Under the pieces are notes generated by a model. The model saw nothing but the letters and a program-made list of their open reading frames with translations, searched no databases and was not told the DNA's origin. Position numbers and translations under genes: made by a program. Shown here in pieces: positions 9,383 through 64,000 of a DNA stretch of 64,000 nt (positions within the stretch are counted from its first letter, which is position 1; every line of letters starts with the position of its first letter). Source of the DNA: an uncultured Candidatus Binatia bacterium (GTDB lineage: Bacteria; Desulfobacterota; Binatia; UBA9968; JAJDTQ01); assembly GCA_965221155.1 (NCBI GenBank), contig OZ244869.1, positions 4,895,321 to 4,959,320 on the forward strand, in the 5' to 3' direction.

Positions 9383-9436
9383 TTAGTGTCCTGTCCGGTT
9401 CAAACCCGCCGGCGTCCGCCTCGTTCGATACCGCGT
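9383..9436. repeat. remnant: MITE-type terminus TAGTGTCCTG fused to a half-REP (GGTTCAAACCCGCC)
   Basis: Sequence ttagtgtcctgtccggttcaaacccgccggcg. The same TAGTGTCCTGT(C/G)CCGG-REP junction occurs at 33855-33912. Confidence 0.4.
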
Positions 9437-12746: not shown

Positions 12747-12820
12747 CGCGTCTCTCTCCTTTCCGAGTGGACAACGTCCATCCCGAGACCTGGTATCGGC
12801 CGGTGGCGCGGTGCGAGCAC

Positions 12821-13390: not shown

Positions 13391-13419
13391 CGCGCCGCGC
13401 TGCAGCGCGATACCAACTC

Positions 13420-14574: not shown

Positions 14575-14594
14575 TCGGGCAAAACCACCGAGGG

Positions 14595-14918
14595 CTATTG
14601 GCCTGCCTGGAAGGCGGATTCCGGCAACTCCCGCACTTTCCCCTCCGCCCATCGCTGATAGGCTTGATGGAAGGTACCGCGGGAAGCCGCCGGCCGTTGC
14701 GCCGCGCCGGCCTTGAGATTCAACTCGTAGTGGGCCTGGTGATGGACAAGCGAGAGTTGCGCCCAGGCCGCGGCTTGCGCGGCGCTCGACGGGGGGTTGA
14801 CGAAGCTCGCCCGGTCGACGTCAATTGACGACGGCGCGCAGGCTGACAACGACACGACCACCCATCCCGCGGCGGCGAGCCGAAGCGCCCCGGGCGCGAT
14901 TCGCGGAGTTGCGCACAT
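14595..14918 (-). CDS. small lipoprotein in the RcpB/CpaD position of the tad locus
   Basis: Track ORF 14595..15002 begins inside a REP. The likely start MCATPRIAPGALRLAAAGWVVVSLSAC carries a lipobox. Its position between the secretin gene and cpaE matches rcpB/cpaD in canonical tad loci. Confidence 0.4.
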   Translation of the reverse strand: MCATPRIAPGALRLAAAGWVVVSLSACAPSSIDVDRASFVNPPSSAAQAAAWAQLSLVHHQAHYELNLKAGAAQRPAASRGTFHQAYQRWAEGKVRELPESAFQAGQ

Positions 14919-14943
14919 GGTAACGTCTCCTGTCCCCGGAGCC

Positions 14944-14997
14944 TGCGCCGCAGGAACCGGACATCCGATGTAGGGGCGGGTTTCAAACCCGCCCGTG
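14944..14997. repeat. single REP unit
   Basis: gcgccgcaggaaccggacatccgatgtaGGGGCGGGTTTCAAACCCGCCCgtg. Confidence 0.85.
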
Positions 14998-15055
14998 TCC
15001 ACTATCGCCTGGTGGGCCGATACATGCTTCCGGCGTTTCGTGAGTCTTCCACCGC

Positions 15056-16357: not shown

Positions 16358-16406
16358 TGAAGGCCTCCAACCGCGACATCTCGAACGAATGAAGGGACCC
16401 AGGGCG

Positions 16407-16426
16407 GCCGGCACAACGATGCCGGC
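16407..16426 (-). terminator. GC-rich hairpin downstream of flp (possible partial terminator or attenuator)
   Basis: GCCGGCA-caacga-TGCCGGC: 7-bp stem, 6-nt loop. No clear U-tract follows. Confidence 0.25.
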
Positions 16427-16794: not shown

Positions 16795-18471
16795 CTATAA
16801 CCCGGATATTACTGTCCTTGTCCTTCGGATCCCTTGAACCATCCGGCCGATCTCTTGAAACGCCGTTTGCATGCGCTCCGGATCGCTGTTTTCGACAAAA
16901 GCGTGTTCTTCGGACGTCGCACAAGCGACGAGCCGTTCACGCAACTCCTGCTCCCTCGGGTGGCCGTTCGGCACCGCCGAAACGGTGAACACGGTGATGC
17001 CGTCGGCTTTCGCGAACTCGCAGGATTCCAGGAAGATCGCGTTGAGGATATCGCGGTCCTCGCTGTCGTTGCCCAGATCCGTCAACCGGGTCCCCGCCCG
17101 ATAACCTTCTTCGAGGCTGCCGCTCCCGGCCCGGCCGTATCCGGTATACTGCGAAGTATATTCCGTGCGGGAAACATTGCCGCGCCGGTAGTTCCCGGGG
17201 TAGGTCCGCTGGCTGTCGTAGGCATCGTTGATGCCGTCACTCAGGAGCACCAGAACCTTCTGCTTGCCCAGCTCCGTCCGGTCATCCTCCGGAAGGCCCC
17301 AGGCGTTTCGCCATTCGGGAGCCAGCAGCCGCCTTCCCCACACGGCCCCCAGATGCGTCATGGTGCCGCCGCCGGACCAGGGTTGCAGATTCGCAATCGC
17401 CTGCTCCACCGTTTCGCGGTCGGTGGTGAGCGGAACGATCTCGTCGCGCGGGCAACCATAGTGCGGGCTGCTCGAATAATCTTCATGAGGGTTGTCGGCG
17501 GACCAGTCGTTCTCGCCACGCACCTCCGCGCCGGTCTCCGCGGCCAGCGCGGCGCGCTCCGCGGGGCGGAATTCCAGCGTGCTCGGCGAAAACCACGTCG
17601 TGAACGGCGCCTCGCCGGGCGTGACGAGGGAGAGATCCAGATCGTCTTCCTGCTCACGGTGTTCGATGCAGCCGCGCCAGGGGCCGAACCCCGGGGGGAT
17701 GGCCTTGTGTCCCTGGCCCAGGTCGCTCACCCAATCCTGCCGCGCCGCCCCGACATTGACGGTGGTGTTGAACGGCACCAGGCCAACCGACATATGCCCG
17801 GTGTCGCCCACTTCCTGGTCGTACAGAGCAGCCACCAGGACTTGCGCCGCGTTTCGGACGACGTTGATCCGGCGGTCTTCCTCGGGAAACAAGATCCCTG
17901 CTCCCGTATGGATGCTGCTGTTCATCGAACCGGTGACGTCGATCGCCAGCACCAGATCGACGGGGGCCACAATGCGCTCGGCGCCGCTTGCAGCGTTGGT
18001 TTTTTCGATCAGCCGACCCCAAATATGCCGGCCGACAATTGCTCCGCCGAGGTCGGCGGACGCCTCAACGCCGATAACGCCGGCTTCGCGATCCGGTGTG
18101 AGGGTTAGCTCCAGCGTATCCGCCGCCAACTCACGAGCCCCCTCGGACAGGTTGGCCAGAATATAACGTCTGGCCAACGGCTTCAGTTGCTCAGCGATCT
18201 CCTCCTCGGTCAAACCGGCGTCGAGTTTGGCCAGGTGCTGCGTCGCCGCAAGGCTCGCCGAAGCGGCGGCGGCCTGCAGAACGTTGCGATGATGGAGCAG
18301 TACGACATGATCGCTGACGAACGCGGTGCCCGTGAAGCACATCAAGGCGATGAACACGGACGAGATTCCAACCGCGCCGGCCCGCGTGTCGCCAAAAAAA
18401 CCGTCCATGAGCCCGGACCGGCCGGCGAACCCGCACGACCCTTGCTTTGTTGCTCCGTCCCCCACCGTCAC
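16795..18471 (-). CDS. tadG: TadG-like pilus-associated protein with TadE-like N-terminus and vWA domain
   Basis: GTG start overlaps the tadE stop (GTGA). N-terminal hydrophobic segment AGAVGISSVFIALMCFTG. vWA MIDAS motif VLAIDVTGSM. Confidence 0.65.
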   Translation of the reverse strand: MTVGDGATKQGSCGFAGRSGLMDGFFGDTRAGAVGISSVFIALMCFTGTAFVSDHVVLLHHRNVLQAAAASASLAATQHLAKLDAGLTEEEIAEQLKPLARRYILANLSEGARELAADTLELTLTPDREAGVIGVEASADLGGAIVGRHIWGRLIEKTNAASGAERIVAPVDLVLAIDVTGSMNSSIHTGAGILFPEEDRRINVVRNAAQVLVAALYDQEVGDTGHMSVGLVPFNTTVNVGAARQDWVSDLGQGHKAIPPGFGPWRGCIEHREQEDDLDLSLVTPGEAPFTTWFSPSTLEFRPAERAALAAETGAEVRGENDWSADNPHEDYSSSPHYGCPRDEIVPLTTDRETVEQAIANLQPWSGGGTMTHLGAVWGRRLLAPEWRNAWGLPEDDRTELGKQKVLVLLSDGINDAYDSQRTYPGNYRRGNVSRTEYTSQYTGYGRAGSGSLEEGYRAGTRLTDLGNDSEDRDILNAIFLESCEFAKADGITVFTVSAVPNGHPREQELRERLVACATSEEHAFVENSDPERMQTAFQEIGRMVQGIRRTRTVISGL

Positions 18472-20046: not shown

Positions 20047-21912
20047 TCAGTCCTTGGCGAGCAGGCCGTATTTCTTCAGTTTCCGGTGCAGGGTCACCCG
20101 GTCGATGCCCAATGCCCGGGCCGCCTGCGTGATGTTGTTGCCCGAGGCTTCGAGCGCTTGGGCCAGCGCCCGCCGCTCGACTTCCACCAGCGGCCGGACC
20201 GACGCCGGTGTGGAGTGATCGCTTGAGGAAACATGGGGCAGGAAGAGCTGGGGCGGGAGGCTGTCCGCTTGCAGCACGTCGGTCTTCTCCAACAGAACGG
20301 CGCGCTCGATTGCGTTTTCGAGCTCGCGCACGTTGCCGGGCCAATCGTACTGGAGCAACAGACGCAACGCCGCGGTGGAGATGCCGCTCATGGATCGATC
20401 GCTGCGTTCGGCGTATTTCTTCAGAAAATGGTTGGCCAGCAAGGGAATGTCTTCACGATGCTGCCTGAGCGGCGGCATCACGATGGGGAACACAGCGATG
20501 CGATAGAACAGGTCTTCCCGGAACTCCCCCACCTTGACCGCAGCCTCCAGGTCCTTGTTGGTCGCCACGATCACCCGGATGTCGACGGGGACGGTGACGG
20601 CGCCACCCACTCGCTGGATTTCCCGCTCCTGCAGCACCCGCAACAGCTTGGCTTGCAGCGCCGGCCGCATGTCGCCGATCTCGTCGAGGAGGATCGTTCC
20701 CCCCTTGGCGCGCTCGAAGGCGCCGATTCTCTGCCTCGTCGCCCCGGTGAAAGCCCCCCGTTCATGGCCGAACAACTCACTTTCCATGAGCGCCTCGGGA
20801 ATGGCGGCGCAGTTGATGGCCAGAAACGGCCCATCTTTCCGCGGGCTGTTGAAGTGGAACGATTTTGCCACCAACTCCTTGCCGGTCCCGCTCTCGCCCT
20901 GGAGCAGCACCGTAATGTCGCTTTCCGCGGCCTGCCTCATCAGCGCGTACACCTGCTGCATGGGAGGGCTGGCGCCTACCATGCCGTCAAAGGAGTAGGC
21001 CGTCTCCAGCTCGGCGCGCAAGCGCAATACTTCCACCTTCATCCGCTCTGCCTCCACCTCCTTGGATACGTCCCGGTACACATGGAGGCTGCCCATGACC
21101 TCTCCCTGACCGTCATGCACCGGCGCAGTCTTTCGATAGAACAGCCGCTGTTCCGGCACGGTACCCGCGGCGCTTTCCTCCCCCAGGGCGCCGCCCTCCT
21201 TGAAGATGAACCTGCCCTCGACGTCGGGCAGGTCCGGCTCCCGGAACCGTTCCCGGAACTGCGCCGCGAGCGCATCCGGCGAGAGCTCCTTCAACTCGTT
21301 TTCCGTCAGGTCGGACAACTTCTCGTAGCCTCGATTGGCGAACACCAGGTGCCCGGTGAGGTCGTACATGGCCATGGCCTCCCCGGTGGTGTTGAGCACG
21401 GCTTCCAGCCTTTGATGGCCGATGGCAAGCTGCCGCCGTTTCTCCGCCAACTCCTGCTCGACGTTCCACTTGCCGACCAGGGACAGCGTGATCTGCTGGA
21501 TCTCCTCGCGGGCGAAGGGCTTTCGGATATAGAGCGTCTTGTGAAGCAGATCCACTTTCTGGATGATCTCGGGCAGAGACCTGTCGGTGTAAGCGGTCAT
21601 GATGACGAACTCGACCTCGCGGTCGACCTCTCTCATACGGCGGATCGTTTCGATACCGTCGACGCCCGGAGGCATTCGGATGTCGATGTAGGCAACGGCA
21701 ATGGGACGGTCCCATTCCTTTCCAGCTCTCACGATCTCGCAGGCTTCCTCTCCGTTCCTGGCGTGAAGCAACTGGAACTCCGGCGGAAAGGACCGCTCTT
21801 CCTCGACGACGAACGCGGCCGCCAGCTCCGACGCCGCCAACAGTTGCGGTTTCAACATTTCTCTAAAGTCGTCGTGAATCTCTCTCTGGTCATCGACGAC
21901 CAAGACGCGCAT
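20047..21912 (-). CDS. sigma-54-dependent response regulator (REC-PAS-AAA+-HTH, NtrC family)
   Basis: Track ORF 20047..21942 trimmed to MRVLVVDDQ. Walker [15 protein letters not shown] motif, C-terminal HTH ([24 protein letters not shown]). Confidence 0.85.
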
Positions 21913-21935
21913 GTTGGCGTATTCCCTGAAGTCCA

Positions 21936-24098
21936 TCAGCAATCCTCTCCGTGGTCCACGATAGCCGGGGTTCTTGCCTTTTCGACCGGGCGGGCCAGTT
22001 GCCTTGGGGGGAGTCGCAGGCTGACGCGCACGGTCGCGCCCTTGCCGACGCCGTCGCTTGAAAGGTCGATCCGCCCACCCGATCCAACGACGAAATTCGC
22101 GGCCGAATGGAGACCAAGGCCGGTGCCCGATTCTTTCGTGGTATAGCCGGCGGCAAAGAACATCCGGGTATCCTTACCACCGAACCCGATGCCGTCATCG
22201 ATCACTTCAAGGTTGAGAAAATCCCCCTCCGTGCCGGCCCGTATCCGAATGCGAGGCTCTTCCTTGAGTCCGTCCGACTCTCGGAGCTCGTGAATCGCCT
22301 GCACCGAATTCTGGATCAAATTGACCATCATCTGATGAAACTGACTCTCCTGAATCCTGACCTCTTTCGGCGCCTCCGCGCAGTCGACGTCGATCCGGAT
22401 CCCGCCATTGTCGAGCGAATCCCGCACTACCTTGACGGCATCCGAGAGCGCATTCCGAAGGTTGACATCTTTCCGGCTCATACCCGAACTGCCAGGCGAC
22501 TTCTGGGTACGCACAATATCAGCGATGTGCTTCGCCCTGTCTCTGACGCGCTCAACCGTCCTTGCCAACCCTCTGTTGTGTCTGACGAAGTCTTCGGCGA
22601 GGGCGATAATGAACGGCCTCACCTTCTGGCCTTGCGAGTCGTTCTTGATGTAGTCGATCCAATCATCCCGGTGCGGCTTTATGGCGTCGGCAAGGGCGCG
22701 GAGGCGGCGCACCAACTGATCGTTCATGAAATTCTGGTAGAGGGTCTCGGTTCCCGTGGTTACGCTGTTGATGGCGTTGCCGATGTTGTGAAGGATGGTA
22801 TCGACCACCTCCAACCGTCCTTGGGCGAATGCCTCCACCAATGCCTCTTCAGCGAGCACCCGATCGGTGACGTCGCGGAAAATGAGGACACCCCCTCTGA
22901 TCTCGGCGGCGTCGTTCAGGAGCGGCCGCGCGCTCGTCCAGAGGTAAATGCCGCCGTTCGGGTGGTTCGGCCTGCGGACGAATATGTTCATGTCGTCAGT
23001 GGCCTCGCCGTTGAAGATGGCCCGGGGAAGCGGCAGGTCCTCGTTGTCGATGGGCGTCACACGATCGGAATAGTAATAGACATCGTTGGATTTTTCCGGC
23101 CATTTGCCCTGGCGCCTGACGAGGTATTCCTGGTCGAGAATCTCCTTGGCGCCGGGATTGACGTAGAGGAACTCTCCGCTTTGGTCGCTGACGATGATGC
23201 CTTCCCGGATGCTGTCAAGAACGGTTTGCAGCAGCTCGCTCTGTTCCCTCATCTCACCTATGGTTTGTTGCAGGCGGGTTTCCGTCTCCTTCCTGCCGGT
23301 AATGTCCTGAAAAACGATGACGCCTCCCGCTTGCCTCTTGGAGGTGTCCTTCAGAGGCCGGCCGGTGACGCTGACATAGACGCCCTGGGGGTGCTGCTCA
23401 TTACGCACGAAGACCTCAAGCCCGTCCGTATCCTGGCCGCGCATGGCAAGCACGAGCGGATTCTCGTCCACCGGCAGGAAAGTTTCCTTGTCGAGACGAA
23501 AAACACCATGCAGCGCGGCCCATTCATCGATCTTGTCGGTGGGTTCACGCATGCCGCCGATCCGTACCGCGCCTGAATTGAAAGCCAGGCGCTGCCCGTT
23601 TTGATCCGTAGCGATGACGCCCTCTTCCATACTGTTGAAAATGACGTTCATCATATCGAGTTGATTCCGCATCTCATCGATTTCGCGCTCAAACCGGCTC
23701 ATGGCCTCCCTATGCCCGCTTTCCCGCCCGCGCAGAGAAAGAGCGTTCAGGAGGTTCAGGCGCAGTTGCCGCCGGTCGAACGGCTTCAGCACATAGCCGA
23801 ACGGAAAGGCCGTTGGAGCCGGTGGACACGGGTTTTCCTCGGCGCCGTCCGTCAGACAGACCACGGGAACGTCGAGCTCGCTCCCGATCCGTCCGGCCGC
23901 TTCGAGGCCGTTCACCTCCGCTTCAAGGTCGAGATCGATCAAGGCCGCATCGGGAGCTGCTTCCGGCGCTTTTTCAATGGCTTCGGCCGCGGACGCGGCC
24001 ACCGCGCACACCGTGAAACCAAGACCCCGCAGGCATTGCTCCAAACCCTCGGCGCCGGGCCCGTCGCTCCGGACAACCAGTATCCTTGCATTCGTCAT
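21936..24098 (-). CDS. hybrid sensor histidine kinase (atypical REC - 2x PAS - HisKA/HATPase)
   Basis: N-terminal receiver lacks the DD pair ([10 protein letters not shown]). Two PAS-like regions, then a kinase core (...GTGLGLHSA). Overlaps the regulator gene by 7 nt. Confidence 0.7.
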
Positions 24099-45230: not shown

Positions 45231-45698
45231 TCAGGAGAGCTCTTGGCTCAAGCTCGCCATTTCAATGGCAGTGACGGCAGCCTCGAATCCCTTGTTGCCC
45301 ATCTTCGCCCCGGCGCGATCGACGGCCTGCTCCACCGTGTTGGTGGTCAACAGGCCGAAGGCAATGGGGATACCGTGCTGGTTCATGGCATTGCCCACCC
45401 CTCGCGAGGCTTCACCGCAGATATAGTCGAAATGGGGCGTGTCCCCGCGAATAACGGCCCCGACACATATCAGCGCGTCGTACTTGCCGCTTTTCGCCAT
45501 CTTGTGGGCGCAGAAGGAAATCTCGAAGGCGCCGGGGACCCACACCACGTCCACGTGCTCGTCCGTGTCCGCCCCGTGCCGCCTCAGGGCGCTCACCGCG
45601 CCGTCGAGGAGCCGCTCGGTAATGAAGCCGTTGAACCGGCTGGCGATGATGCCGAACCTCATTGCCGTGGCGTCCAGTTTTCCTTCGATCACTCGCAT
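45231..45698 (-). CDS. ribH: 6,7-dimethyl-8-ribityllumazine synthase
   Basis: MRVIEGKLDATAMRFGIIASRFN...VVWVPGAFE. Confidence 0.9.
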   Translation of the reverse strand: MRVIEGKLDATAMRFGIIASRFNGFITERLLDGAVSALRRHGADTDEHVDVVWVPGAFEISFCAHKMAKSGKYDALICVGAVIRGDTPHFDYICGEASRGVGNAMNQHGIPIAFGLLTTNTVEQAVDRAGAKMGNKGFEAAVTAIEMASLSQELS

Positions 45699-45717
45699 GG
45701 CCGGCACCTTCAGTGGG

Positions 45718-46938
45718 TTAGTGCAGGTCGTCCTTGACGTTGGTCAGGAGATGCCCGAGCTTGTCGCGTTTCGTCTGCAGATAGCCGGCATTGCCGCGGT
45801 GGGGCTTGACCTCCAGCGGAATCCGTTCGCTCACCGACAAGCCATAGCCCTCCAGGCTGACGATCTTGCGCGGGTTGTTGGTCAACAGGCGCAGCCGCTG
45901 GATGCCCAGGTCGCGCAGTATCTCCGCCGCCACCCCGTAGTCCCTCAGGTCCACCGGAAACCCCAGCTCCAGGTTCGCCTCCACCGTGTCGCGCCCCGCG
46001 TCCTGCAACGCGTATGCCTTGATCTTGTTGGTCAGGCCGATCCCGCGGCCCTCCTGATGCATATAGACGATGACGCCGCACTCTTCCTGGTCAATGATCC
46101 GGATCGCCGCCCGCAACTGGTCGCCGCAGTCACACCGTTGCGACGAAAACACATCCCCGGTGAGGCACTCCGAATGCACGCGTACCGCCACATCGTCGCG
46201 CCCGCTGACGTCACCCTTCACCAGGGCCATGTGCTCGAACGGATCGAGATTGGTCCGGTAAAGGATCGCCTTGAAGGACTTGCCGTGAATGCTCGGGAAA
46301 TCTTCCTCCCACACCTGCCGGATGGTGGCTTCGTTGCGGAGGCGGGACGCGAGGAGGTCCACGATCGAGACCATTCGGAGATCATGCTGCTCGGAGAAGG
46401 CGAGGAGGTCGTCCCCCACCGCGATGGAACCATCCTCGCGAAGAACCTGACAGATGGCCGCAACGGGTTGCAGTCCGCAGAGCGCCGCGAGATCCACCGA
46501 GGCCTCCGGGGGGCCTGCCTTGGTCAACACGCCTCCCTTGCTGGCCTGGATCGGCAACACGTTGCCGGGGGTGACGAAGTCCCGGGAACCCACGTCTTGC
46601 CTGGCGGCCGTTCGGATGGTGTGCGCCCTGCCCGCCGCCGACACCTCGATGCCGAGGGCCGAGCTGGCGCCGATGGGCGCCCAGACGGGCGCCTGTCCCG
46701 GGACCTGGTTCGCCGCCGCGTCCGCGCCGAGCCCCAGCTTCTCCAGGTGCGAGGCTTCCATGGCCAGATAGAGCACCCCTCGCGCGTGCCGCAGCATGAA
46801 ATTGACGTGCTCCGGCGTCACCTTCTCGGCGGGCATGCACACGAAGCCCACCCCATCGTCGCTTTCCTCGTCCATGAGCAGGATCGGACGACCCTGACCG
46901 AGCTCTTCCCGGATGGTTTCGATGGGAGTCAATGACAT
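45718..46938 (-). CDS. ribBA: bifunctional DHBP synthase / GTP cyclohydrolase II
   Basis: RibB N-domain and RibA C-domain (CDCGDQL; GRGIGL). Confidence 0.9.
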   Translation of the reverse strand: MSLTPIETIREELGQGRPILLMDEESDDGVGFVCMPAEKVTPEHVNFMLRHARGVLYLAMEASHLEKLGLGADAAANQVPGQAPVWAPIGASSALGIEVSAAGRAHTIRTAARQDVGSRDFVTPGNVLPIQASKGGVLTKAGPPEASVDLAALCGLQPVAAICQVLREDGSIAVGDDLLAFSEQHDLRMVSIVDLLASRLRNEATIRQVWEEDFPSIHGKSFKAILYRTNLDPFEHMALVKGDVSGRDDVAVRVHSECLTGDVFSSQRCDCGDQLRAAIRIIDQEECGVIVYMHQEGRGIGLTNKIKAYALQDAGRDTVEANLELGFPVDLRDYGVAAEILRDLGIQRLRLLTNNPRKIVSLEGYGLSVSERIPLEVKPHRGNAGYLQTKRDKLGHLLTNVKDDLH

Positions 46939-55058: not shown

Positions 55059-56063
55059 TTGCCTGGACTATCTTGGAAGGCTGGAATCGGACCGCTCATT
55101 CGTCGTCCCCCGAACGGGGGAACCCGTCGGAGGCAGGGCGTGAACGCGCGGTTGGGCTTGCTACATGCCGTTCTGCCGGCCACGGTCGATCTCAGTTCCA
55201 AGGTGCCGGCGAGTCATCCGTCCGCACGGAACCTGGGCACCGAGAGAATGGGCTCCGGGACCATCGTCGATCCCACGGGCACCATCCTGACCGTCAACTA
55301 CGTCGTCAACGGAGCCGAAGCCATCACCGTCACGCTGTCGGACGGGAAGGAATACCCTGGCCGTCTCACGGCACAGGACTTCGACTCCGGTCTTGCCCTG
55401 GTCAACATCGACGCCGTGGATCTCCCGTACCTCCGCCCGGCCGAGACCGTCACCGTAGGCCAGCCGGCGTTCATGGTCGCCAGCAGCGGGCAGCAATCCC
55501 GACGGGTCAGTGACGGCGGCGTCACCTCCCTCGAGGGTTACGACGGACAGTGGGAATACCTGCTTGAACGATCCATCCGGTTAAGCGCCTTCAATCCCGG
55601 CTTCGGCGGCGGCACGCTGGCCGACTCCCGGGGCCGCCTCATGGGGGTGGTGTCCCTGAATCTGAACGAGATCGGCAAGTTCACGTTGGCGATCCCGGTG
55701 GAATACTACCTTCGAGACGCGGATGAGTTGAAACGGTTCGGGCGGGTCCGCAGCCGACCGCCTCGCCCCTGGCTCGGCCTCTACCCTCAAGCTCTGGGAG
55801 GGCACGTGGTCGTCACCGGGGTCACACCGTCGGGGCCCGCCGAGAAGTCCGGCCTGAAACAGGGTGACATCATCCTCACGGTCGAGGGCCAGGAAGTGCA
55901 GACGCGCCCCCAACTCTACCGGGAAGTCTGGAAGAAACACGCCGGGGACGCCATCACCTTCCACGTGATCCGGGGAGACGGTTCACTGGACGTCCAGGTG
56001 GCCAGCGGCGACCGCTGGGACTTCAACCAGTCCAACCCGCCAGGCGGAAAAGCCGGCAACTGA
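55059..56063 (+). CDS. HtrA/DegP-like trypsin-fold protein with one PDZ domain; catalytic His and Ser substituted (likely pseudo-protease); start uncertain
   Basis: LTVNYVVNG where S1C proteases have TNNHVV. Asp retained (DSGLALVNI). GFGGGTL where GNSGGAL is expected. PDZ: VVVTGVTPSGPAEKSGLKQGDIIL. No obvious signal peptide. Confidence 0.55.
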   Translation: MPGLSWKAGIGPLIRRPPNGGTRRRQGVNARLGLLHAVLPATVDLSSKVPASHPSARNLGTERMGSGTIVDPTGTILTVNYVVNGAEAITVTLSDGKEYPGRLTAQDFDSGLALVNIDAVDLPYLRPAETVTVGQPAFMVASSGQQSRRVSDGGVTSLEGYDGQWEYLLERSIRLSAFNPGFGGGTLADSRGRLMGVVSLNLNEIGKFTLAIPVEYYLRDADELKRFGRVRSRPPRPWLGLYPQALGGHVVVTGVTPSGPAEKSGLKQGDIILTVEGQEVQTRPQLYREVWKKHAGDAITFHVIRGDGSLDVQVASGDRWDFNQSNPPGGKAGN

Positions 56064-56068
56064 CCCGC

Positions 56069-56473
56069 GTGAAGCACGTCACCACTTATCGGGTCATCTA
56101 TGGCGACACGGACCAGATGGGGGTGGCCTACTACGCCAACTATCTCCGGTGGTTCGAGATCGGCAGGACCGAGTTCATGCGTGAGGCCGGGATACCCTAC
56201 GAGCGGGCGGAACGGGAGGGGATCTTTTTCCCGGTCACCGAAGTACAGTGCCGTTACCGCAAACCGGCCCTCTACGACAACCTGCTCCGGATCGAGACGA
56301 CCGTCGAATCCCTGAGCCGCGTGGCGCTGAAATTCCACTATTGGATCGGCCTCGAAGGAACCCGCGTCACCCTCGCGTCAGGTTGGACGAAACACGCCTG
56401 TCTCGACCGCGACCGCAAGGTGACCAGGCTGCCCGGCGCGTATGCACTGGCGTTGGGATTGAACCCCGGGTAG
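56069..56473 (+). CDS. acyl-CoA thioesterase (4HBT/YbgC-like)
   Basis: YRVIYGDTDQMGVAYYANYLRWFEIGRTEFMREAG. Confidence 0.75.
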   Translation: MKHVTTYRVIYGDTDQMGVAYYANYLRWFEIGRTEFMREAGIPYERAEREGIFFPVTEVQCRYRKPALYDNLLRIETTVESLSRVALKFHYWIGLEGTRVTLASGWTKHACLDRDRKVTRLPGAYALALGLNPG

Positions 56474-56485
56474 GGACCCGCAACA

Positions 56486-56563
56486 CGGGCGGGTTTGAAA
56501 CCCGCCCCCTACAAATCGTCGGCAGGGCGCGGTGACCATGTAGGGACGGGTTTCAAACCCGCC
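56486..56563. repeat. inverted REP doublet (REPIN-like), ~35-bp spacer
   Basis: GGGCGGGTTTGAAACCCGCCCcctacaaatcg ... catgtagGGACGGGTTTCAAACCCGCCC. Confidence 0.8.
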
Positions 56564-56578
56564 CGCGCCTGCAACGCG

Positions 56579-57922
56579 CTACCGATCGTCCGAAGCGGCA
56601 GAGTTCTCTCCCGCGGCACCGACACCGCAATACGTCTCCGCCACCTGCCGCAACAGTGCGATATTGTCCGTATGACCGGTCATATTCGCCGTCACGCGGC
56701 CGCGTACGGGCCGGCCGATGAGTGAGAAGTCCCCGACGATATCCAGGATCTTGTGACGCACGAACTCATCATCGAATCGGAGGGTCGTGTTGATCACCTT
56801 CTCGTCGTCGATGAGGATGCAGTTGCCGAGCCGGCCGCCCTTGATCAGTCCCAGCCGCTCGAGTTTCTCGAAATCACGCAGGAAACCGAAAGTCCGAGCC
56901 GGAGCGATCTCGTCACGGAACGAGTCCGCCCCCTTGTAGACATACGTGTACTCCTGCGTTCCCACGGGGCTTGGATACCGCAGCCGATAGTGAACGGTGA
57001 AGCCGTCCGCCGGCTCGATGATGATCTCCTCTTCCCCGTCCCCAACGACGCGAAGGGTCCGGTCGATGACGATCTCCGGGCGCTTTCCCTGCTGCTCTTC
57101 CACGCCGGCTTCCTCGATCAACCGGCAGAACTCGATGGCGGAACCGTCCATGATGGGAATCTCGCCATACATCTTGATCAGCAGGTTCGTGATCCCGTAC
57201 GAGTGGAGCGCCGCCAACAGGTGCTCCACCGTCCCCACCACCACGCCGTCCCGCTGCAGCGAGGTGGCGAAATCAGTGGAGCGTACGTAGTCCAAATGGG
57301 CAGGGACCGTGGCATCGGCGGAGATTCCGCCGAAATGGATACCGCTGTTCTCCGGCAAAGGGTGCAGAATAACGCCCGTGCTGACACCCGAATGCAGCCC
57401 CAGACCGCATGCCACCACGCTTTTCTTGAGGGTCCTTTGCGGCACGCCGCTGCCGCCGTTGCCATGGAAGCCGGACTGGTATGCCGGCTGCCCGACGCCG
57501 CCGCTTCCGGGCGCTTGGAGCCTCTCCTCGCTGGTCGAGGCCTCTCGCCTCGCGTCACCGCAAGCCCGCTCGATGGTGGCCAGCAAGCCGTCCAGGGACA
57601 GCGGCTTTTCGATAAAATCAAAAGCCCCGAGCTTGGTCGCCGTCACCGCCGTGTGGATGCTCCCGTGGCCGGAGATCATGATGACTCGGGCCTCCGGATG
57701 CTCCCGCCGAATCTGCTTGAGAAGCCCGATCCCGTCCATTTCGGGCATCCAGACGTCCAGGAGGATGACGTCGGGAGCTTCTTTCGCTACCAGGCTCATG
57801 ACTTCCGACCCGTCCAGGGCCGCGATCACGCGGTAGCCCTCGTCCGTGAGAATCTCCCGCACGGTTTCGCGAATGACGTCCTCGTCGTCCACGACCAGCA
57901 CGGTTCGTTGCACTGACTGCAT
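56579..57922 (-). CDS. lpxC: response-regulator receiver domain fused to UDP-3-O-acyl-N-acetylglucosamine deacetylase (REC::LpxC)
   Basis: Residues 1-120 form a CheY-like REC (VLVVDDEDV; ILLDVWMPEMDG; MISGHGS; DFIEKP). A Gly/Ser-rich linker follows. From RTLKKSVVACGLGLHSG onward it is a full LpxC (TVEHLLAALHSYGITNL; IPIMDGSA; ARTFGFLRDFEKL; DEFVRHKILDIVGDF; GHTDN). Confidence 0.8.
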   Translation of the reverse strand: MQSVQRTVLVVDDEDVIRETVREILTDEGYRVIAALDGSEVMSLVAKEAPDVILLDVWMPEMDGIGLLKQIRREHPEARVIMISGHGSIHTAVTATKLGAFDFIEKPLSLDGLLATIERACGDARREASTSEERLQAPGSGGVGQPAYQSGFHGNGGSGVPQRTLKKSVVACGLGLHSGVSTGVILHPLPENSGIHFGGISADATVPAHLDYVRSTDFATSLQRDGVVVGTVEHLLAALHSYGITNLLIKMYGEIPIMDGSAIEFCRLIEEAGVEEQQGKRPEIVIDRTLRVVGDGEEEIIIEPADGFTVHYRLRYPSPVGTQEYTYVYKGADSFRDEIAPARTFGFLRDFEKLERLGLIKGGRLGNCILIDDEKVINTTLRFDDEFVRHKILDIVGDFSLIGRPVRGRVTANMTGHTDNIALLRQVAETYCGVGAAGENSAASDDR

Positions 57923-57993
57923 GGTTGCTGGATCCTCCCTGGTCCCTCTTCGTCCGGCGCCGGATACCGGATCTGCGCGGGCATGGCTCCGGC

Positions 57994-60225
57994 TCAGGAA
58001 GCCTCGCTGGTGCGGACATCCAACGGGTCCGCCTGCGCCGCCACCGGAAACTCGATGATGAAGCGCGTGCCGTGGGGCTGATTCGGACGCACGCGAATGT
58101 AGCCCCGGTGATCGGCCACGATGGTCCCGACAATTGACAAACCGAGTCCGGTGCCCTCTTTCTTGGTGGAGTAGTAGGGTTCGAAGACCCGGCCCCGATC
58201 CTCCCGGGCGATGCCTTCACCCTCGTCCGCCACCTCCAGGCGAACCATGCCGAAGGTCTCGTCGAACCGGGTCGCGATCTCGATGCGTCCTTTCCCGTCC
58301 AGGGAAGCCACGGCGTTGTCCAGCAGATTGAACAGGGCGCGGTTGATTTGCTCGCGATCCAGCTCCACGGACGGGATCGATGCCTGCTCCGAGAAATCGA
58401 ACTCGACTTCGCGGTGCCCCTCCTTGAACAGGAACAACGCTTCGCGGACCACCTCGTTGAGATCGTCCGGCAGGAGCTGCGCGGTGGGCAGCCGCGCGAA
58501 GTTCGAGAACTCGTTCACCAGGGTTTTGAGCTCATCCACCTGCCGGATGATGGTGGACGTACATTTGTCCAGGACACCCCCGTCTCCGTCCAGGACGTTC
58601 TCATAGCGCTTGCGAAGACGCTGCGCGGAGAGCTGGATCGGCGTGAGCGGATTCTTGATCTCGTGAGCGATACGGCGCGCCACCTCGCGCCACGCCTCCA
58701 CGCGCTGGACCTGTTGGATCTCGGTGATGTCCTCCATGAAGACCATGATGCCGAGCGTGTGGCCGTCGTCGTCCTGGAGGCTGGCGGCCACGGTCATAAG
58801 CGTCCGGTTGCCGTCAGGACCTCCGAGACGGATGCCGCGTTCCACACCCCCGCCCCCCTTCACCTGTTCGATCACCTCCAGCAACGGTCGCAGCTCGGGG
58901 GTTCGCAACGCCTCCTCGTAGTGCCGGTGGAGCACCTCCGACGCCTCCAGGCCGAGGGTCTGTTCGGCTGCCTTGTTGACGATGGTCACCTTGCCGAAAC
59001 GATCCACCGAGATCACCCCGGCGGTGATGTTGGCCAGCAGCGTTTCCATGTACTGCCGGCGCTGCTCCAGTTCGGAGTGGGAATGCTTGAGATCCTCGGT
59101 CATCTGGTTGAAGGAAGCCACCAGCGTTCCGATCTCGTCGTCACCGCTGGTCTCGATGCGATAGTCCAGGTTGCCGTGGGCAACCTCGTGGGTCCCTTCG
59201 GCCAACTGCTGGATCGGCACGGTGATGCCCTTGGCGAGGGCGAGGCCGAACCACGTCGCCGCGAAGATCATGACGAGGGTGATGAGGAGCAGGGTCAGCA
59301 TGTAGGTTTTCTTCACCGGGTCCTTGAGAATGGCCAGATGTTTGTGCTCCTCGTACGATCGGGATATCTGCTGCGCCTTCTTGCTGATGCTCTTGGGCAC
59401 GAAATAGTCCACCACCACGACCCCGATGATTCTCCTTCCGTCGCCGTACACCGGCACCGCGCCCCGCAGCACGTCGCCCTCACCCAGCGGTTGTGTTCGG
59501 GCCACTTCGAGTCCCCGCAGGGCGCTGTTCAGAAAATCCGCCTGGGGGCTTACCGTTACCCCCGTGGGCACCTGGTCGTTGAAGGCCTTCACCAGCGCGG
59601 TCCCATCGGGCTTGTAGATCTCCACGGTACCGAGATTGTATTCCTGCTGCTTGTCCTCCACGAGACGCTTCAGGCCGTCGAATTTCTTCGGTTCGAAGAG
59701 TTCCTCGTCACCGATGCGCTGGCTTAGCTGCCGCGCGAAGAAAAGCGCGTTGTTGGCGGAGTTCTGATAGTAGGTCAGGCTGATGTCGAGGGACCCCTTG
59801 AGTGCGTTCACGATCTGGGAGTCGAACCACTTGTCCACCGAACGGGTCACGAAGCTTTCGGCAATCAGGAACAACATCACGGTGGGCACCAGTGAGATGC
59901 CGATGAAGGCCAACACGAGCCTGCCCTGAAGACGGGAGCCCAGGATTCGCCTCCTCCGGTCCAGGACCAGCTTCAGGAGGTTCCGGGCCACGAGAAACAC
60001 CAGCAGCACCAACAGGATGATGTTGATGTTGACCAGGAGAAAGAACGCGATGTTGCTGGTGAGGGAGTATTCCGCCGCGACGTCCGGCAGGAGGTCCTCG
60101 AAGAACGCGAACAGCAGAATCATCAGGGCGGCGATGAGAATCACCCACCCTTCACGCCTGCGCCGCTTCCGTTCCTCCGATCGAAGCTTCTCCGCCAGTT
60201 CTTCGTTCGTCTTGGCCGTGCTCAT
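57994..60225 (-). CDS. ntrY: NtrY-type sensor histidine kinase (multi-TM, HAMP, PAS, HisKA, HATPase)
   Basis: Three N-terminal TM segments, a periplasmic loop, a fourth TM, HAMP, PAS, H-box HEIKNPLTPIQLSAQRL, and G-boxes (GTGLGLSIV). Lies 71 nt upstream of REC::lpxC on the same strand. Confidence 0.75.
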   Translation of the reverse strand: MSTAKTNEELAEKLRSEERKRRRREGWVILIAALMILLFAFFEDLLPDVAAEYSLTSNIAFFLLVNINIILLVLLVFLVARNLLKLVLDRRRRILGSRLQGRLVLAFIGISLVPTVMLFLIAESFVTRSVDKWFDSQIVNALKGSLDISLTYYQNSANNALFFARQLSQRIGDEELFEPKKFDGLKRLVEDKQQEYNLGTVEIYKPDGTALVKAFNDQVPTGVTVSPQADFLNSALRGLEVARTQPLGEGDVLRGAVPVYGDGRRIIGVVVVDYFVPKSISKKAQQISRSYEEHKHLAILKDPVKKTYMLTLLLITLVMIFAATWFGLALAKGITVPIQQLAEGTHEVAHGNLDYRIETSGDDEIGTLVASFNQMTEDLKHSHSELEQRRQYMETLLANITAGVISVDRFGKVTIVNKAAEQTLGLEASEVLHRHYEEALRTPELRPLLEVIEQVKGGGGVERGIRLGGPDGNRTLMTVAASLQDDDGHTLGIMVFMEDITEIQQVQRVEAWREVARRIAHEIKNPLTPIQLSAQRLRKRYENVLDGDGGVLDKCTSTIIRQVDELKTLVNEFSNFARLPTAQLLPDDLNEVVREALFLFKEGHREVEFDFSEQASIPSVELDREQINRALFNLLDNAVASLDGKGRIEIATRFDETFGMVRLEVADEGEGIAREDRGRVFEPYYSTKKEGTGLGLSIVGTIVADHRGYIRVRPNQPHGTRFIIEFPVAAQADPLDVRTSEAS

Positions 60226-60343
60226 TGGAGTGACCTGACCGCGTGTCCCGCGTCACACCGTTCTATCGCTTCCACCCGTAAAGCACAAAAGAAATGATAG
60301 CGCTCAACAGCCAGGAATCTGCGCCGCAGGAAGACGAGGGTGT

Positions 60344-60364
60344 AGGGGCGGGTTTCAAACCCGC
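60344..60364. repeat. single REP
   Basis: gtgtaGGGGCGGGTTTCAAACCCGCCCgcgcc. Confidence 0.85.
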
Positions 60365-60398
60365 CCGCGCCTGCATGGCGCTGTCGGTCGATACACCC

Positions 60399-61436
60399 TC
60401 ACAACAACCGCTTCTGCCGCTTCTCCCGGTCCACGCGCGACGCGGACTGGGATCGCCCCAGATGCCGGTAGGCCACCGGGGTGGCCACCCGGCCCTGCGG
60501 CCGGCGCTCGAGAAAGCCCGCCTGGATGAGATACGGCTCGTAGGCGTCCTCGACGGTGCCCCGTTCGTCGCCGATGGCGGCCGCCAGGGTATCCAGTCCC
60601 ACGGGTCCGCCGTCAAACTTGTCGATGATGGTGGTGAGAATCAGCGTATCCATCTTGTCGCAGCCCTGCTCATCCACCTCCAGCATCTCCAGGGCCTGGC
60701 ATGCCACGGGCCGGGTGATCCTTCCCTCGCCGTGGACCTCCGCGTAGTCCCGGACCCGCCGCAGCAGCCGGTTGGCGATACGCGGCGTGCCGCGGGAGCG
60801 GCGGGCGATCTCCATGAAGCCCGCGTCATCGCCGCCCACACCCAAGAGAGACGCGGACCGGACGAGCAGCTTCGCCAATACCTGGGGTTCGTAGAAGTCG
60901 AGCCGGAACACCGCGCCGAACCGGTTGCGCAACGCGGGGGTCAGCAAGCCGGAACGGGTGGTGGCGCCGATCAGCGTAAACCGCTTGAGGTCCAGCTTGA
61001 TGGATTTGGCGCCGGGTCCCTGACCGATCATGACGTCCACCTGGAAGTCCTCCATGGCCGGGTACAGCACCTCCTCCACCACGTGGTTGAGGCGATGGAT
61101 CTCGTCGATGAACAGGACGTCTCCGGTGTCGAGATTGGTGAGCAGCGCCGCGAGGTCTCCGGGCCGCTCGATGACCGGACCGGAGGTAGGCCGGATCTCC
61201 ACCTCCATCTCCCTGGCGATGAGATGCGCCAGGGAGGTCTTGCCCAGACCCGGAGGGCCGTGGAAAAGGAGATGGTCCAGCACGTCGCCGCGCCGTTTGG
61301 CGGCCGTAATGGCGATCGCGAGGTTCGCCTTCACGCGGTCCTGTCCGAAATATTCGCTGAACCGTCGGGGCCGGAGGCTCGATTCGTAGACGACGTCCTC
61401 TTCGGTGCCCGCGGGGGAGATGGTCCTGTTTTCCAT
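60399..61436 (-). CDS. ruvB: Holliday junction helicase RuvB
   Basis: Walker [12 protein letters not shown]; full-length RuvB. Confidence 0.95.
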
Positions 61437-61469
61437 GAATGCCGTTCCGTTGCACAGACCGGCAGTGGG

Positions 61470-62051
61470 CTACCGGCTGAGTTGACGCAGGGTTTCCTTG
61501 AGCACGGTTTCCAGCTCCGAGGCTCCCTGGCCCAGCACCTGGCGCACGGCACGGTCCGCATCGGCACGGCGATAACCCAGATTCACCAACGCCGATACCG
61601 CGTCGCCTCTGATTCCGGGATCCGCCGCCGGTGGGCCAGCGTCCGGAAGTGCGTATATTCTATCACGCAGCTCCACGATCATGCGATCGGCCAGGCGCTT
61701 GCCCACCCCCGGAATCGATACCAGCCGGGCGACGTCGCCGTCCCTGAGGGCGCCCAACAATTCCCCGGCCGCCATACCCGACAGGATGTTGAGGGCCAAC
61801 CGGGGGCCGATGCCCGAAACCCCGGTCAGCAGCACGAAGGCCTGCTTCTCCGCGGAGTCGAAGAAACCGAACAACTGGAGGGAGTCTTCCCGGACGTGCG
61901 TATACACCAGCAGCGTGACGGGCTCTCCCACCTCCGGCAGCCGGTAAAAGACACTCAGCGCCGTAAAAAGCTGGTAACCGACGCCGCCGACGTCGACGAT
62001 GACCTCGCCCGGCGCCTTGTGGTCCAGTGTTCCGCGAACCTTGGCTATCAC
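61470..62051 (-). CDS. ruvA: Holliday junction DNA-binding protein RuvA
   Basis: Track ORF trimmed to GTG start (M)IAKVRGTLDHK. Confidence 0.85.
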   Translation of the reverse strand: MIAKVRGTLDHKAPGEVIVDVGGVGYQLFTALSVFYRLPEVGEPVTLLVYTHVREDSLQLFGFFDSAEKQAFVLLTGVSGIGPRLALNILSGMAAGELLGALRDGDVARLVSIPGVGKRLADRMIVELRDRIYALPDAGPPAADPGIRGDAVSALVNLGYRRADADRAVRQVLGQGASELETVLKETLRQLSR

Positions 62052-62077
62052 GACGGCTCTCGGAAGACCCGCATGGT

Positions 62078-62642
62078 TCAGCCTTTGCCTCCGGGAAGGG
62101 CATCCGCATCCCACCGCAACCCCCTTGAGCCTCTCCCCCTCCGGCCCGTGGCGGCCAGGACGCTGGTCTGGAAGGCGTGTAGATGGCTGTGGCATATGGC
62201 GGCCGCCAGAGCGTCCGCCGCGTCCTCCTGGGGTTCATCGGCCAGCCGCAAGATGGCCGTGACCATTTGCTGCATCTGGGCCTTGCCCGCGTGTCCGTAG
62301 CCCGTCAGGGCCTTCTTGATCTGAACGGAGTTGTACTCGGACACGGCGATGTCGCGTTCCGCCGCGGCCAGCATGGCCACGCCGCGCACCTGACCGAGCT
62401 TCAACGCGCTCTGGACGTTGCGCGCCAGAAAGACCTTCTCCAGACTGACGTGCCCAGGTTCGTGTTCCCGGATGACCTTGGCCAGCTCCGTGAATATGCG
62501 GTACAGGCGCCGGTCCTGGGACTGGCTGGGAGAAGCTCGGACCGTGCCGTGGGCGACATGTTCCAGGCGGATTCCATCCCCGCGGATCACGCCCCAGCCG
62601 GTCTTCACGGTTCCGGGGTCTATGCCCAGGATCGTTTCGATC
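62078..62642 (-). CDS. ruvC: Holliday junction resolvase RuvC (5' end unresolved: no canonical start upstream of the catalytic GIDPG motif)
   Basis: The in-frame sequence upstream of the track start encodes ...KIETILGIDPGTVKTGWGVI, including the essential first Asp. There is no ATG/GTG/TTG in frame between the yebC stop (62661) and this motif. Confidence 0.7.
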
Positions 62643-62660
62643 TTTCCTTCTCCAACGACG

Positions 62661-63407
62661 TCAGCCGGCCTTCTCCAGGATCTCGTCGGGGATGTCGAAG
62701 TTCGCCGCGACGCTTTGAATGTCGTCGTGGTCTTCGAGTTCCTCGGTGAGGCTGAGGGTCTGCTCGGCTTCCTTCCCGCCGAGTGCGGTGGTGGTCTTGG
62801 GGATCATGGTCACTTCGGCGGAAGCCAAGGGGATCTTCCCGTTCTCGAGACTCTCTCGAACGGCGGCGAAATCCTCCGGCTGGGTGACGACCTCGAACAC
62901 GTCGTCGCTCTCGGTCACGTCCTCGGCGCCGGCCTCCAGGGCCAGCCCCAGCAGCACCTCCTCCTCCACCGCCTCCTTGGACACGACGATGAGTCCCTTG
63001 CTGTCGAACATCCATGCCACGCAGCCCGTCTCTCCCAGACTGCCACCGTGCTTGTTGAACATCCGCCGGATGTCCGACACCGTACGGTTCCGGTTGTCGG
63101 TCAAGACCTGCACCAGAAAAGCCGCGCCTCCGGGGCCGTAGCCCTCGTAGCTGATCTCTTCGTAGGACACCCCTTCGAGCTCGCCGGTGCCCTTCTTGAT
63201 GGCACGGTCGATGTTTTCGTTGGGCATGCTGTTGTCACGAGCCGTCTGCACGGCCGTGCGCAGGCGCGGGTTGGCCGCCACGTCTCCGCCGCCCATGCGG
63301 GCCGCCACCGTGATTTCCTTGATGAACTTGGTGAACAGCGCGCCTCTCTTGGCGTCCTTGGCAGCCTTTTTGTGCTTTATGCTACTCCACTTCGAATGTC
63401 CGGACAT
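62661..63407 (-). CDS. yebC: YebC/PmpR-family transcriptional regulator
   Basis: Track ORF trimmed to [22 protein letters not shown]. Confidence 0.9.
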
Positions 63408-63545
63408 GGCGCGAACCTCTCCTCGAACAGCTACTTGCAAAACCGCCCGCCCATGGCGCGTTCGCAACCAAAAAGTACCACAATCCGGGTCGTTCCGTAA
63501 ATGGAGCCAACCGGGCCGCCCACGCTTCCATGGGGCCGACATTGC

Positions 63546-63551
63546 GCTATA
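63546..63551 (+). promoter_or_regulatory. TATAAT -10 hexamer 12 nt upstream of the rlpA ATG (near-leaderless transcript?)
   Basis: gcgcTATAATctacccttgATG. A perfect -10 element is rare in a 68 % GC genome. Divergent from yebC. Confidence 0.3.
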
Positions 63552-63562
63552 ATCTACCCTTG

Positions 63563-64000
63563 ATGGTTCCTGCACGTCTCTGGTGGCGGAGCGCCGGTCT
63601 CCTGTCGTGGGCCGCCGTCTTCCTTCTGCTCTCCGCCTGCGCCTCCACGAAGCCCTCCTTCACGCCCCCGGTGCCGCTCTCGCAGGAGGGCATCGCCTCC
63701 TGGTACGGGCCCGGCTTCCACGGAAAAAAGACCACCAGCGGAACCGTTTACGACCAGTACGCCATGACCGCCGCGCACCAGACCCTGCCGCTGGGCTCCA
63801 GCGTGGTGGTCACCAACCTCACCAATAGCAAGTCGGTGACCGTGCTGATCAACGACCGGGGACCATTCGTCAAGGAGCGGGTGATCGACCTTTCGTACGC
63901 CGCGGCTCTGGCGGTGGACATGATCGGACCGGGAACGGCGCCGGTTCGCGTCGATGTCGTGGACACCGGCGGACACCGGCTCACCGGCATCCCCGACCGC
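63563..64000 (+). CDS. rlpA: septal ring lytic transglycosylase RlpA (N-terminal part; continues beyond window)
   Basis: Lipoprotein signal (LLLSACAS) then a DPBB domain ([22 protein letters not shown]...[22 protein letters not shown]). Not in the ORF track because it runs off the edge. Confidence 0.8.

Follow-up and report, generated by a model that had tools for sequence, protein, structure and literature searches.

The 64,000 nucleotides (nt) considered here, hereafter the window, come from an uncultured Candidatus Binatia bacterium (positions 4,895,321 to 4,959,320 of contig OZ244869.1, assembly GCA_965221155.1), and on their minus strand lies a gene (56579-57922) whose 447-amino-acid (aa) product has a response regulator receiver domain (REC) followed by LpxC, the UDP-3-O-acyl-GlcNAc deacetylase of lipid A synthesis. 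LpxC provides the flux-controlling, essential step of lipopolysaccharide synthesis and is a major antibiotic target; the controls known for it are proteolysis, by FtsH/LapB or Lon, and, in a few taxa, transcription. Encoded directly upstream of the fusion on the same strand is a 743-aa sensor histidine kinase of NtrY type (57994-60225, assigned by its Pfam domains), with a spacer of 71 nt (57923-57993, read from the sequence) in which a ribosome-binding site, GGAGGA (57933-57938), is placed 10 nt before the fusion's ATG.

The receiver (aa 8-117; 57572-57901) matches Pfam Response_reg (PF00072) at 114.5 bits, and the LpxC domain (aa 162-428; 56639-57439) is full-length, covering positions 1-267 of the 268 of the Pfam LpxC profile (PF03331) at 281.9 bits, the cutoff being 27. 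The TIGR00325 lpxC equivalog model scores the protein at 259 bits, over its cutoff of 187 (187.25). Between the domains is a Gly/Ser-rich linker (aa 123-157; 57452-57556) to which AlphaFold gives a per-residue confidence (pLDDT) below 50. An initial annotation of this DNA had described a complete receiver joined through such a linker to a full LpxC with its zinc and catalytic residues intact, and the description holds in each part. The receiver quintet is complete, with the acidic pocket D12/D13, the phospho-acceptor D56 (codon 57755-57757, within the motif VILLDVWMPEMDG), S84 and K106, and its aromatic switch residue is F103. The LpxC motifs that had been quoted are all there: VEHLLAAL with E233/H234 (codons 57221-57226), FVRHKILDIVGD with H390, K391, D394 and D398 (codons 56729-56755), and GHTDN with H417 (codon 56672-56674). 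On alignment with Pseudomonas aeruginosa LpxC the zinc ligands H234, H390 and D394, the catalytic E233 and H417, and T344 and K391 fall column for column on H78, H237, D241, E77, H264, T190 and K238 respectively, with F345 and D398 likewise aligned. Overall the domain is about 38-40% identical to the LpxCs of E. coli and P. aeruginosa.

Both domains are well folded and the linker is disordered in an AlphaFold model for which 62 aligned sequences were the input (predicted template modelling score, pTM, 0.64). Foldseek placed the LpxC half on solved LpxC structures with template modelling (TM) scores of 0.78-0.87, normalised to the target, in keeping with the two-domain fold of LpxC, and no solved chain in that comparison spans both halves. 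Within the LpxC domain, where pLDDT is mostly 80-97, aa 346-380, the presumed Insert II that forms the acyl-chain tunnel, stand apart at about 42-60, which may be a matter of flexibility or of a substrate tunnel that differs in this lineage. At the C-terminus 19 residues extend past the Pfam domain; the last 14 of them (aa 434-447) are non-conserved with pLDDT below 50, and the consensus of our alignment A1 stops with the LpxC domain. Judged by conservation and pLDDT, a conserved C-terminal degron tail of the E. coli FtsH/LapB type is not evident.

What kind of receiver has been joined to the enzyme? Its top NCBIfam match is the NtrX receiver model (NF051870) at 129 bits, and its top PDB matches are the Brucella NtrX structures 4d6x and 5m7n. 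The NtrX architecture of REC, AAA+ (Sigma54_activat) and HTH_8 is not what Pfam finds in the window protein. Since only a REC is present, followed by LpxC, and the 129 bits compare with a model cutoff of 600, the domain is by profile comparison an NtrX-derived receiver and not an NtrX.

The trivial explanation, that assembly or gene calling has joined a single-domain response regulator to lpxC, has a negligible probability. More than 139 independent sequences, drawn from NCBI, ENA, JGI and Logan assemblies and several of them on megabase-scale contigs, have the fusion as one unbroken ORF. One copy, 93% identical, belongs to a long-read contig of 5.3 Mb and 29x coverage (ENA ERZ25069711) whose gene order is that of the window, namely yebC-ruvCAB-ntrY-fusion, then a thioesterase, a PDZ protease and yceD-plsX-fabD-fabG. 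There is thus no stop or frameshift between REC and LpxC of the sort that, according to the initial annotation, would undo its proposal. The linker columns of alignment A1 have no majority residue, yet the linker stays in frame while its sequence varies, and the GC content at third codon positions (GC3) is 0.80 throughout the ORF. Apparent stand-alone relatives (P0163, P0164 and P0200) are fragments caused by contig edges or frameshifts, an artefact of the opposite kind. A further illustration of that kind is one contig (L089:653-8879) on which the synteny of yebC-ruvCAB, kinase and LpxC is kept with ruvB, kinase and fusion all fragmented; it is probably a noisy long-read assembly, and assemblies of its type lead to false ‘stand-alone’ LpxC entries in protein databases.

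The domain architecture has a wide spread. All of the best 120 database homologues (62-95% identity) carry both Pfam domains, and an exhaustive HMMER scan over 1.84 billion cluster representatives yielded, with clustering at 50% identity, at least some 35 clusters of fusion proteins: some 17 of REC-LpxC form (412-461 aa, with identity as low as 34%), some 18 of 650-736 aa and several of 483-505 aa. On these sequence counts the REC-LpxC architecture is far beyond chance. Source labels are Candidatus Binatia, ‘Deltaproteobacteria’ or Nitrospinota metagenome-assembled genomes (MAGs), and restriction of the fusion to Binatia is ruled out by the Nitrospinota-labelled MAGs and by several other deep lineages that have it. 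In databases these proteins are named plain ‘UDP-3-O-acyl-GlcNAc deacetylase’. That no REC-LpxC protein has been characterised, as the initial annotation had suspected, accords with our literature search on REC-LpxC, on LpxC output domains and on LpxC in Binatota or Nitrospina, where no description of the fusion was found; neither a receiver nor a fusion is mentioned where the regulation of lipid A was reviewed in 2025 (PMC12444477).

Conservation of both active sites is close to absolute. In the receiver all 139 aligned sequences have D12, D56, S84 and K106, and all but one have D13, which disposes of the idea that the receiver might prove degenerate on proper alignment. In the enzyme E233, H234, T344, H390, K391, D394, D398 and H417 are invariant in the 139 sequences, and F345 has a single exception. 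This invariance spans three fusion architectures, two of which are described below.

The kinase has Pfam NtrY_N, HAMP, PAS, HisKA and HATPase_c domains, the first of these barely over threshold (26.3 bits, cutoff 23.2). Its four hydrophobic segments (aa 23-51, 53-90, 99-127 and 304-336) leave a loop of about 180 aa between the third and the fourth, which precedes HAMP, and the predicted phospho-accepting histidine is H521 (codon 58663-58665), in the H-box AHEIKNPLTPIQLSAQRL. Both the multi-membrane-spanning HAMP-PAS kinase and the spacer, exactly 71 nt, are thus as initially annotated. Upstream and co-oriented is the block yebC-ruvC-ruvA-ruvB (60399-63575, assigned by Pfam and synteny). A scan of 56000-60700 for σ70 promoters and terminators revealed no promoter-like or terminator-like site, which is consistent with co-transcription of kinase and fusion. 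The proposal that NtrX is missing from the locus is also correct: no NtrX-type regulator was found after the kinase.

Among the loci fetched with 10-kb flanks, all nine Binatia-type ones with upstream sequence (L001-L008 and L015) have a full-length NtrY-type kinase directly upstream of the fusion, 47-66% identical to that of the window, and most are inside the same yebC-ruvCAB block. The pairing, whose absence from related genomes would have spoken against the initial proposal, extends to two more distant architectures. In L081 the order is DUF4390, kinase and a REC-HTH_8-LpxC fusion, and in L082 it is DUF4390, NtrY, a REC-AAA+-LpxC fusion, purN, lolA and rseP, the partner kinase there having an unmarked NtrY_N match. 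Kinase and fusion are paired in L090 also. The H-box and the dimerisation and histidine phosphotransfer (DHp) helix (AWREVARRIAHEIKNPLTPIQLSAQRL) are nearly identical between kinases beside fusions and those beside canonical NtrX-type regulators, which fits a retained cognate interface.

It is in this light that one should consider whether the receiver is a non-signalling relic which stabilises or dimerises LpxC while NtrY signals to another regulator. Several fusion lineages are without an adjacent kinase (L011, L012, L014, L017, L084 and L086), and phosphorylation-independent receivers are known in other families. Pseudo-receivers, however, usually lose some residues of the quintet, and here all five are kept in 138 or 139 of 139 sequences; moreover, the kinase is retained directly upstream with its DHp helix unchanged, and there is no other regulator gene in the operon. 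A relic is therefore very improbable.

The origin of the arrangement is suggested by relatives in which it is not fused. The stand-alone LpxCs closest to the fused domain (35-42% identity) are in MAGs labelled Desulfobacterota, Acidobacteriota and Myxococcota, and there lpxC is just upstream of a gene for an NtrY-type kinase (36-47% identity) which is followed by one for a regulator whose receiver is 47-55% identical to that of the fusion; yebC-ruvCAB often precedes the block. The regulator of L021 is a canonical 454-aa σ54 activator of REC-AAA+(GAFTGA)-HTH form, and an exact GAFTGA is present in 27 of 40 neighbouring regulators. The initial annotation had the fusion occupying the slot where NtrX usually is, and it does: relatives without the fusion have there a REC-AAA+-HTH σ54 activator, its receiver about 50% identical to that of the fusion. 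The same yebC-ruvCAB genes are kept before ntrY in fusion genomes and before lpxC-ntrY-ntrX in the non-fusion relatives. In fusion loci the gap between ruvB and ntrY is just 170-300 nt, and the ancestral lpxC slot is thus empty.

With a σ54 promoter pattern of TGGCAC-N5-TTGCW in which GG and GC were required, a site was present 24-164 nt upstream of stand-alone lpxC in nine of 25 loci at no more than one mismatch (L019:9939, L021:9922, L022:9962, L026:9989, L027:232, L050:8231, L053:7820, L066:4248 and L074:7392), and eight further sites at no more than two mismatches bring this to 17 of 25. The expectation per 300-nt window is 0.006 sites at the stricter setting and 0.026 at the looser, the latter amounting to about 0.65 over the 25 loci. 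At the stricter setting each of the nine loci, about 20 kb long, has no other match to the pattern on the promoter's strand. Essentially none were found in 17 fusion loci and in the window's own operon. Literature on the Geobacter RpoN regulon and a comparative study of σ54 has no σ54-dependent lpxC next to its activator. The lpxC-ntrY-ntrX neighbourhood with a σ54 promoter is, as these comparisons suggest, likely the ancestral state.

Forms that could be intermediate are extant. Proteins of Nitrospinota type (650-736 aa; P0122-P0147, including L014:9839-11971 and L082:8001-10139, Nitrospinota where labelled) have REC, Sigma54_activat and AAA_lid_14 followed by LpxC. Such REC-AAA+-LpxC proteins have, in 20 cases of 20, lost GAFTGA together with the Walker B glutamate and the arginine finger, while Walker A is mostly kept; in about half a Fis-type HTH is retained, placed after the AAA+ lid and before LpxC. 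To judge from its motifs the AAA+ module could be a dead ATPase kept as an oligomerisation scaffold. In P0134 (L081:5913-7388) and P0135 a Fis-type HTH (HTH_8) stands between receiver and LpxC, and such a protein could be both DNA-binding protein and enzyme.

Trees were by neighbour joining with 200 bootstraps. Set against the LpxCs of lpxC-ntrY-ntrX loci, the fused LpxC domains are monophyletic in 200 of 200 replicates, and in the LpxC-domain tree REC-AAA+-LpxC is sister to REC-LpxC. A broad LpxC tree was built from 59 sequences of fusion type and 85 of stand-alone size; in it the smallest split with all fusions has 63 tips (support 134/200), its non-fusion members being three fragments and P0207, a genuine stand-alone. 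None of these four represents an unfused ‘ntrX then lpxC’ stage: P0163 and P0200 were cut short at contig edges, P0164 comes from a contig riddled with frameshifts, and P0207, though real, looks like a secondary loss of REC.

The simplest course of events, and the one to which the comparative data point, would begin with an lpxC-ntrY-ntrX module in which a σ54 promoter drove lpxC. LpxC would then have become attached to the C-terminus of an entire NtrX-type regulator (REC-AAA+-HTH), after which the AAA+ module would have lost all σ54-activating features and first it, then the HTH, would have been deleted stepwise to leave REC-LpxC. Transcriptional control of lpxC would in this way have been replaced by control on the enzyme. 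In short, comparison of the extant forms suggests that the regulator of lpxC was joined to the very enzyme it controlled and then reduced to its receiver.

On the present evidence the fusion is probably a catalytically competent LpxC with a functional NtrX-type receiver for which the adjacent NtrY is the cognate kinase, and which arose stepwise from lpxC-ntrY-ntrX. NtrY would sense an envelope, periplasmic or redox cue, autophosphorylate on H521 and pass the phosphoryl group to D56, and a conformational or oligomeric switch in the receiver would then alter LpxC output post-translationally. What the sequence comparisons show is that receiver and LpxC are intact, that a kinase of cognate type is conserved, and that the protein descends from a pair of regulator and target. 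Phosphotransfer to D56 and the resulting effect on LpxC output are what we infer, with the sign of the effect ambiguous. The version preferred is one in which the unphosphorylated receiver would keep LpxC less active and phosphorylation would relieve this or shift the oligomeric state, as with CheB and the NtrC1/DctD class, because it keeps the ancestral sign, phosphorylated regulator activating lpxC transcription.

Several considerations weigh against all or part of this. That phosphorylation gates LpxC is argued from sequence. The AlphaFold model has no confident packing of REC on LpxC, and so gives no structural backing to steric autoinhibition. As to sign, σ54 ancestry implies activation, whereas alphaproteobacterial NtrYX lowers lpxC mRNA, though indirectly. 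The kinase-less fusion lineages listed above belong here too, and in the REC tree (122 columns) the fusions are not recovered as one clade. The ranking by which the 80 loci were chosen favours those matching both halves of the query, and lpxC is missing from about 15 NtrY/regulator loci for which 7 kb or more of upstream sequence is available; adjacency of lpxC and ntrY is common, not universal. All seven loci centred on LpxC by itself have kinase and regulator downstream. Lastly, a second, stand-alone lpxC may be encoded elsewhere in the genome, beyond the window and the 10 kb on either side of 17 fusion loci that were scanned.

This last point bears on whether the fusion might be an accessory paralogue or signalling device, with a separate stand-alone LpxC making lipid A. 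The fused LpxC would on that supposition be a sensor of substrate or product, a phosphate sink feeding back on NtrY, or an enzyme for particular conditions, and the HTH-bearing forms (REC-HTH_8-LpxC and REC-AAA+-HTH-LpxC) could bind DNA with LpxC as ligand sensor. The scope of the scans leaves room for a second lpxC, but the window has a single LpxC-coding region, and within ±10 kb of the 17 fusion loci there is likewise no second LpxC match. The ancestral lpxC slot in fusion loci is empty, the TIGR00325 equivalog cutoff is exceeded, and the catalytic and zinc residues stay the same throughout a clade in which identity falls to about 34%, which indicates selection for catalysis and not just for binding. 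The stand-alone P0207 is nested in the fusion clade, as expected of a lineage of working enzymes. An accessory role is, on balance, quite unlikely; that the fusion is a working LpxC enzyme is argued from the invariance of the catalytic site, the emptied slot, the lack of a second copy at the sampled loci and the nested P0207.

A serious alternative to direct control of activity is that phosphorylation would govern the abundance or location of LpxC, through a regulated degron, an adaptor module for an AAA+ protease or a tether to the kinase, so functionally replacing the C-terminal-degron route of E. coli FtsH/LapB. Proteolysis controls LpxC in every well-studied system (PMC12444477), and in the fusion the C-terminal 14 residues, disordered and non-conserved, have no evident tail degron of E. 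coli type. A long, flexible linker with no interface predicted between the domains would suit a tag better than an allosteric clamp, and some distant fusions adjoin or overlap genes of Clp-type AAA+ proteins (a ClpB-like gene ahead of the fusion in L086, clpX close by in L084). Such neighbours, however, are confined to two lineages and could be coincidence, and no protease or adaptor gene is conserved beside Binatia-type fusions. No sequence feature separates control of abundance from control of activity, and we regard the former as improbable, if the strongest of the competitors.

In kind the fusion belongs to a known category, that of enzyme-output response regulators. CheB (REC-methylesterase), PleD and WspR (REC-GGDEF) and RpfG (REC-HD-GYP) are built likewise, with a receiver at the N-terminus joined by a flexible linker to a catalytic domain at the C-terminus, and by analogy with them phosphorylation would be expected to gate enzyme output. 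They differ in that theirs are signalling enzymes whose targets are chemoreceptors or second messengers, whereas the output here is the biosynthetic enzyme of the committed step of lipid A, and in that no autoinhibitory interface is predicted in the fusion model. LpxC as a regulated or fused pathway node has precedents with the same catalytic domain in E. coli LpxC, controlled by FtsH/LapB (YciM), and in LpxC-FabZ (PRK13188). Unlike the former, the fusion is without a conserved C-terminal degron tail and has its regulatory input in an N-terminal receiver; unlike the latter, its partner is a signalling domain and not the next metabolic enzyme.

The closest kinship is with NtrY/NtrX of alphaproteobacteria (Brucella, Rhodobacter/Cereibacter, Caulobacter). 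The kinase layout of multi-membrane-spanning NtrY_N, HAMP, PAS, HisKA and HATPase_c is shared, the top profile and PDB matches of the window receiver are to NtrX, and there is a physiological tie to the envelope and lpxC expression (PMC7240162, PMC12444477). In R. sphaeroides and C. crescentus transcription of lpxC is reduced by NtrYX (PMC12444477), and lpxC mRNA is up 8.8-fold in ΔntrYX R. sphaeroides (PMC7240162, PMC12444477). The effect there is negative and, as lpxC has no NtrX site, indirect (PMC7240162). In the window, by contrast, the regulator has neither AAA+ nor HTH but LpxC in their place, implying an output that would be enzymatic instead of transcriptional.

A two-component system with lpxC as its known target is DVU2931/DVU2934 of Desulfovibrio vulgaris, lpxC being the single mapped target of the regulator DVU2934, and in S. 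fumaroxidans lpxC is, according to the authors, beside an operon orthologous to that of DVU2934 (PMC3333781); this system may be orthologous to the lpxC-ntrY-ntrX loci. The latter loci, in Desulfobacterota and Acidobacteriota, have kinase and receiver 36-55% identical to those of the window and an adjacent lpxC with a σ54 promoter. In both of these, unlike in the fusion, the regulator has a gene separate from lpxC and acts on transcription through σ54, a route that has gone from the window, where there is neither the promoter nor the AAA+ module.

The fusion is unstudied and mis-annotated as plain LpxC, and its origin, an activator fused to its own target, is unusually well documented. More tentative, though plausible, is the broader proposition that the sole cellular LpxC of Binatia, Nitrospinota and several further uncultured lineages is a response regulator, that this constitutes a third control of LpxC beside FtsH/LapB proteolysis and transcription, derived from a σ54 activator that was fused to its target and whittled to a receiver, and that control of lipid A and envelope synthesis is the ancestral core function of NtrYX. 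If so, REC-LpxC would be the first two-component phospho-control acting on LpxC itself, and the fusion a ‘Rosetta stone’ for the long-enigmatic function of NtrYX. Together with the lpxC-ntrY-ntrX module, the fusions tie NtrYX to lipid A beyond the alphaproteobacteria and so offer a testable answer to what it is for. As a regulator captured by its target the case is unusually clean, with the full series still extant: separate genes with a σ54 promoter, REC-AAA+-HTH-LpxC, REC-HTH-LpxC and REC-LpxC. The last would provide a soluble single-polypeptide system in which to study receiver control of a metabolic enzyme, and those who rely on database names should be warned that REC-LpxC proteins are now annotated as ordinary LpxC.

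The neighbourhoods of the more distant relatives have features of their own. In L081 (3028-3627) and L082 (4725-5525) the DUF4390 gene is directly before that of the NtrY-type kinase, the position that ruvB has in the window and Binatia-type loci. The most distant REC-LpxC, P0198 (L084:7426-9269, also in L085; 422 aa, 34% identity), has a gene that overlaps a Complex1_30kDa-like gene at the latter's stop, with STAS and HDOD genes near and no kinase nearby. A STAS neighbour recurs with the stand-alone P0207 (L092:338-1850), where a STAS gene and yggT precede. Other orphan fusions have neighbours that hint at stress or envelope functions. In L086 (1715-6029) the orphan fusion P0144 overlaps the end of a gene for a 992-aa ClpB-like AAA+ protein, and the orphan fusion of L011 (8316-12223) is flanked by genes that, as read from their translations, are putatively sigma-factor-like, small heat-shock-protein-like and murI-like.

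Elsewhere in the window four long high-GC3 ORFs of 410-703 aa (9386-11497 and 45439-46935 on the plus strand, 13420-14652 and 16795-18471 on the minus strand) have no Pfam match at E <= 1e-5. Three are inside the region of a Tad-type pilus cluster (11364-16414), which includes a secretin (15056-16414) and a CpaF-like ATPase (11364-12746). Adjoining it on the minus strand (20047-24098) are genes for a 720-aa REC-PAS-HATPase_c protein, with no HisKA match at the same threshold, and then a 631-aa σ54 activator (20047-21942) whose receiver is weak and partial. As a candidate for a displaced NtrX this activator was rejected: its receiver is 26% identical to that of L021 and scores 38.7 bits with Pfam, and it has a hybrid kinase of its own and the Tad pilus cluster beside it. 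It nevertheless illustrates that σ54 activator genes persist in this genome though the NtrX route has gone.

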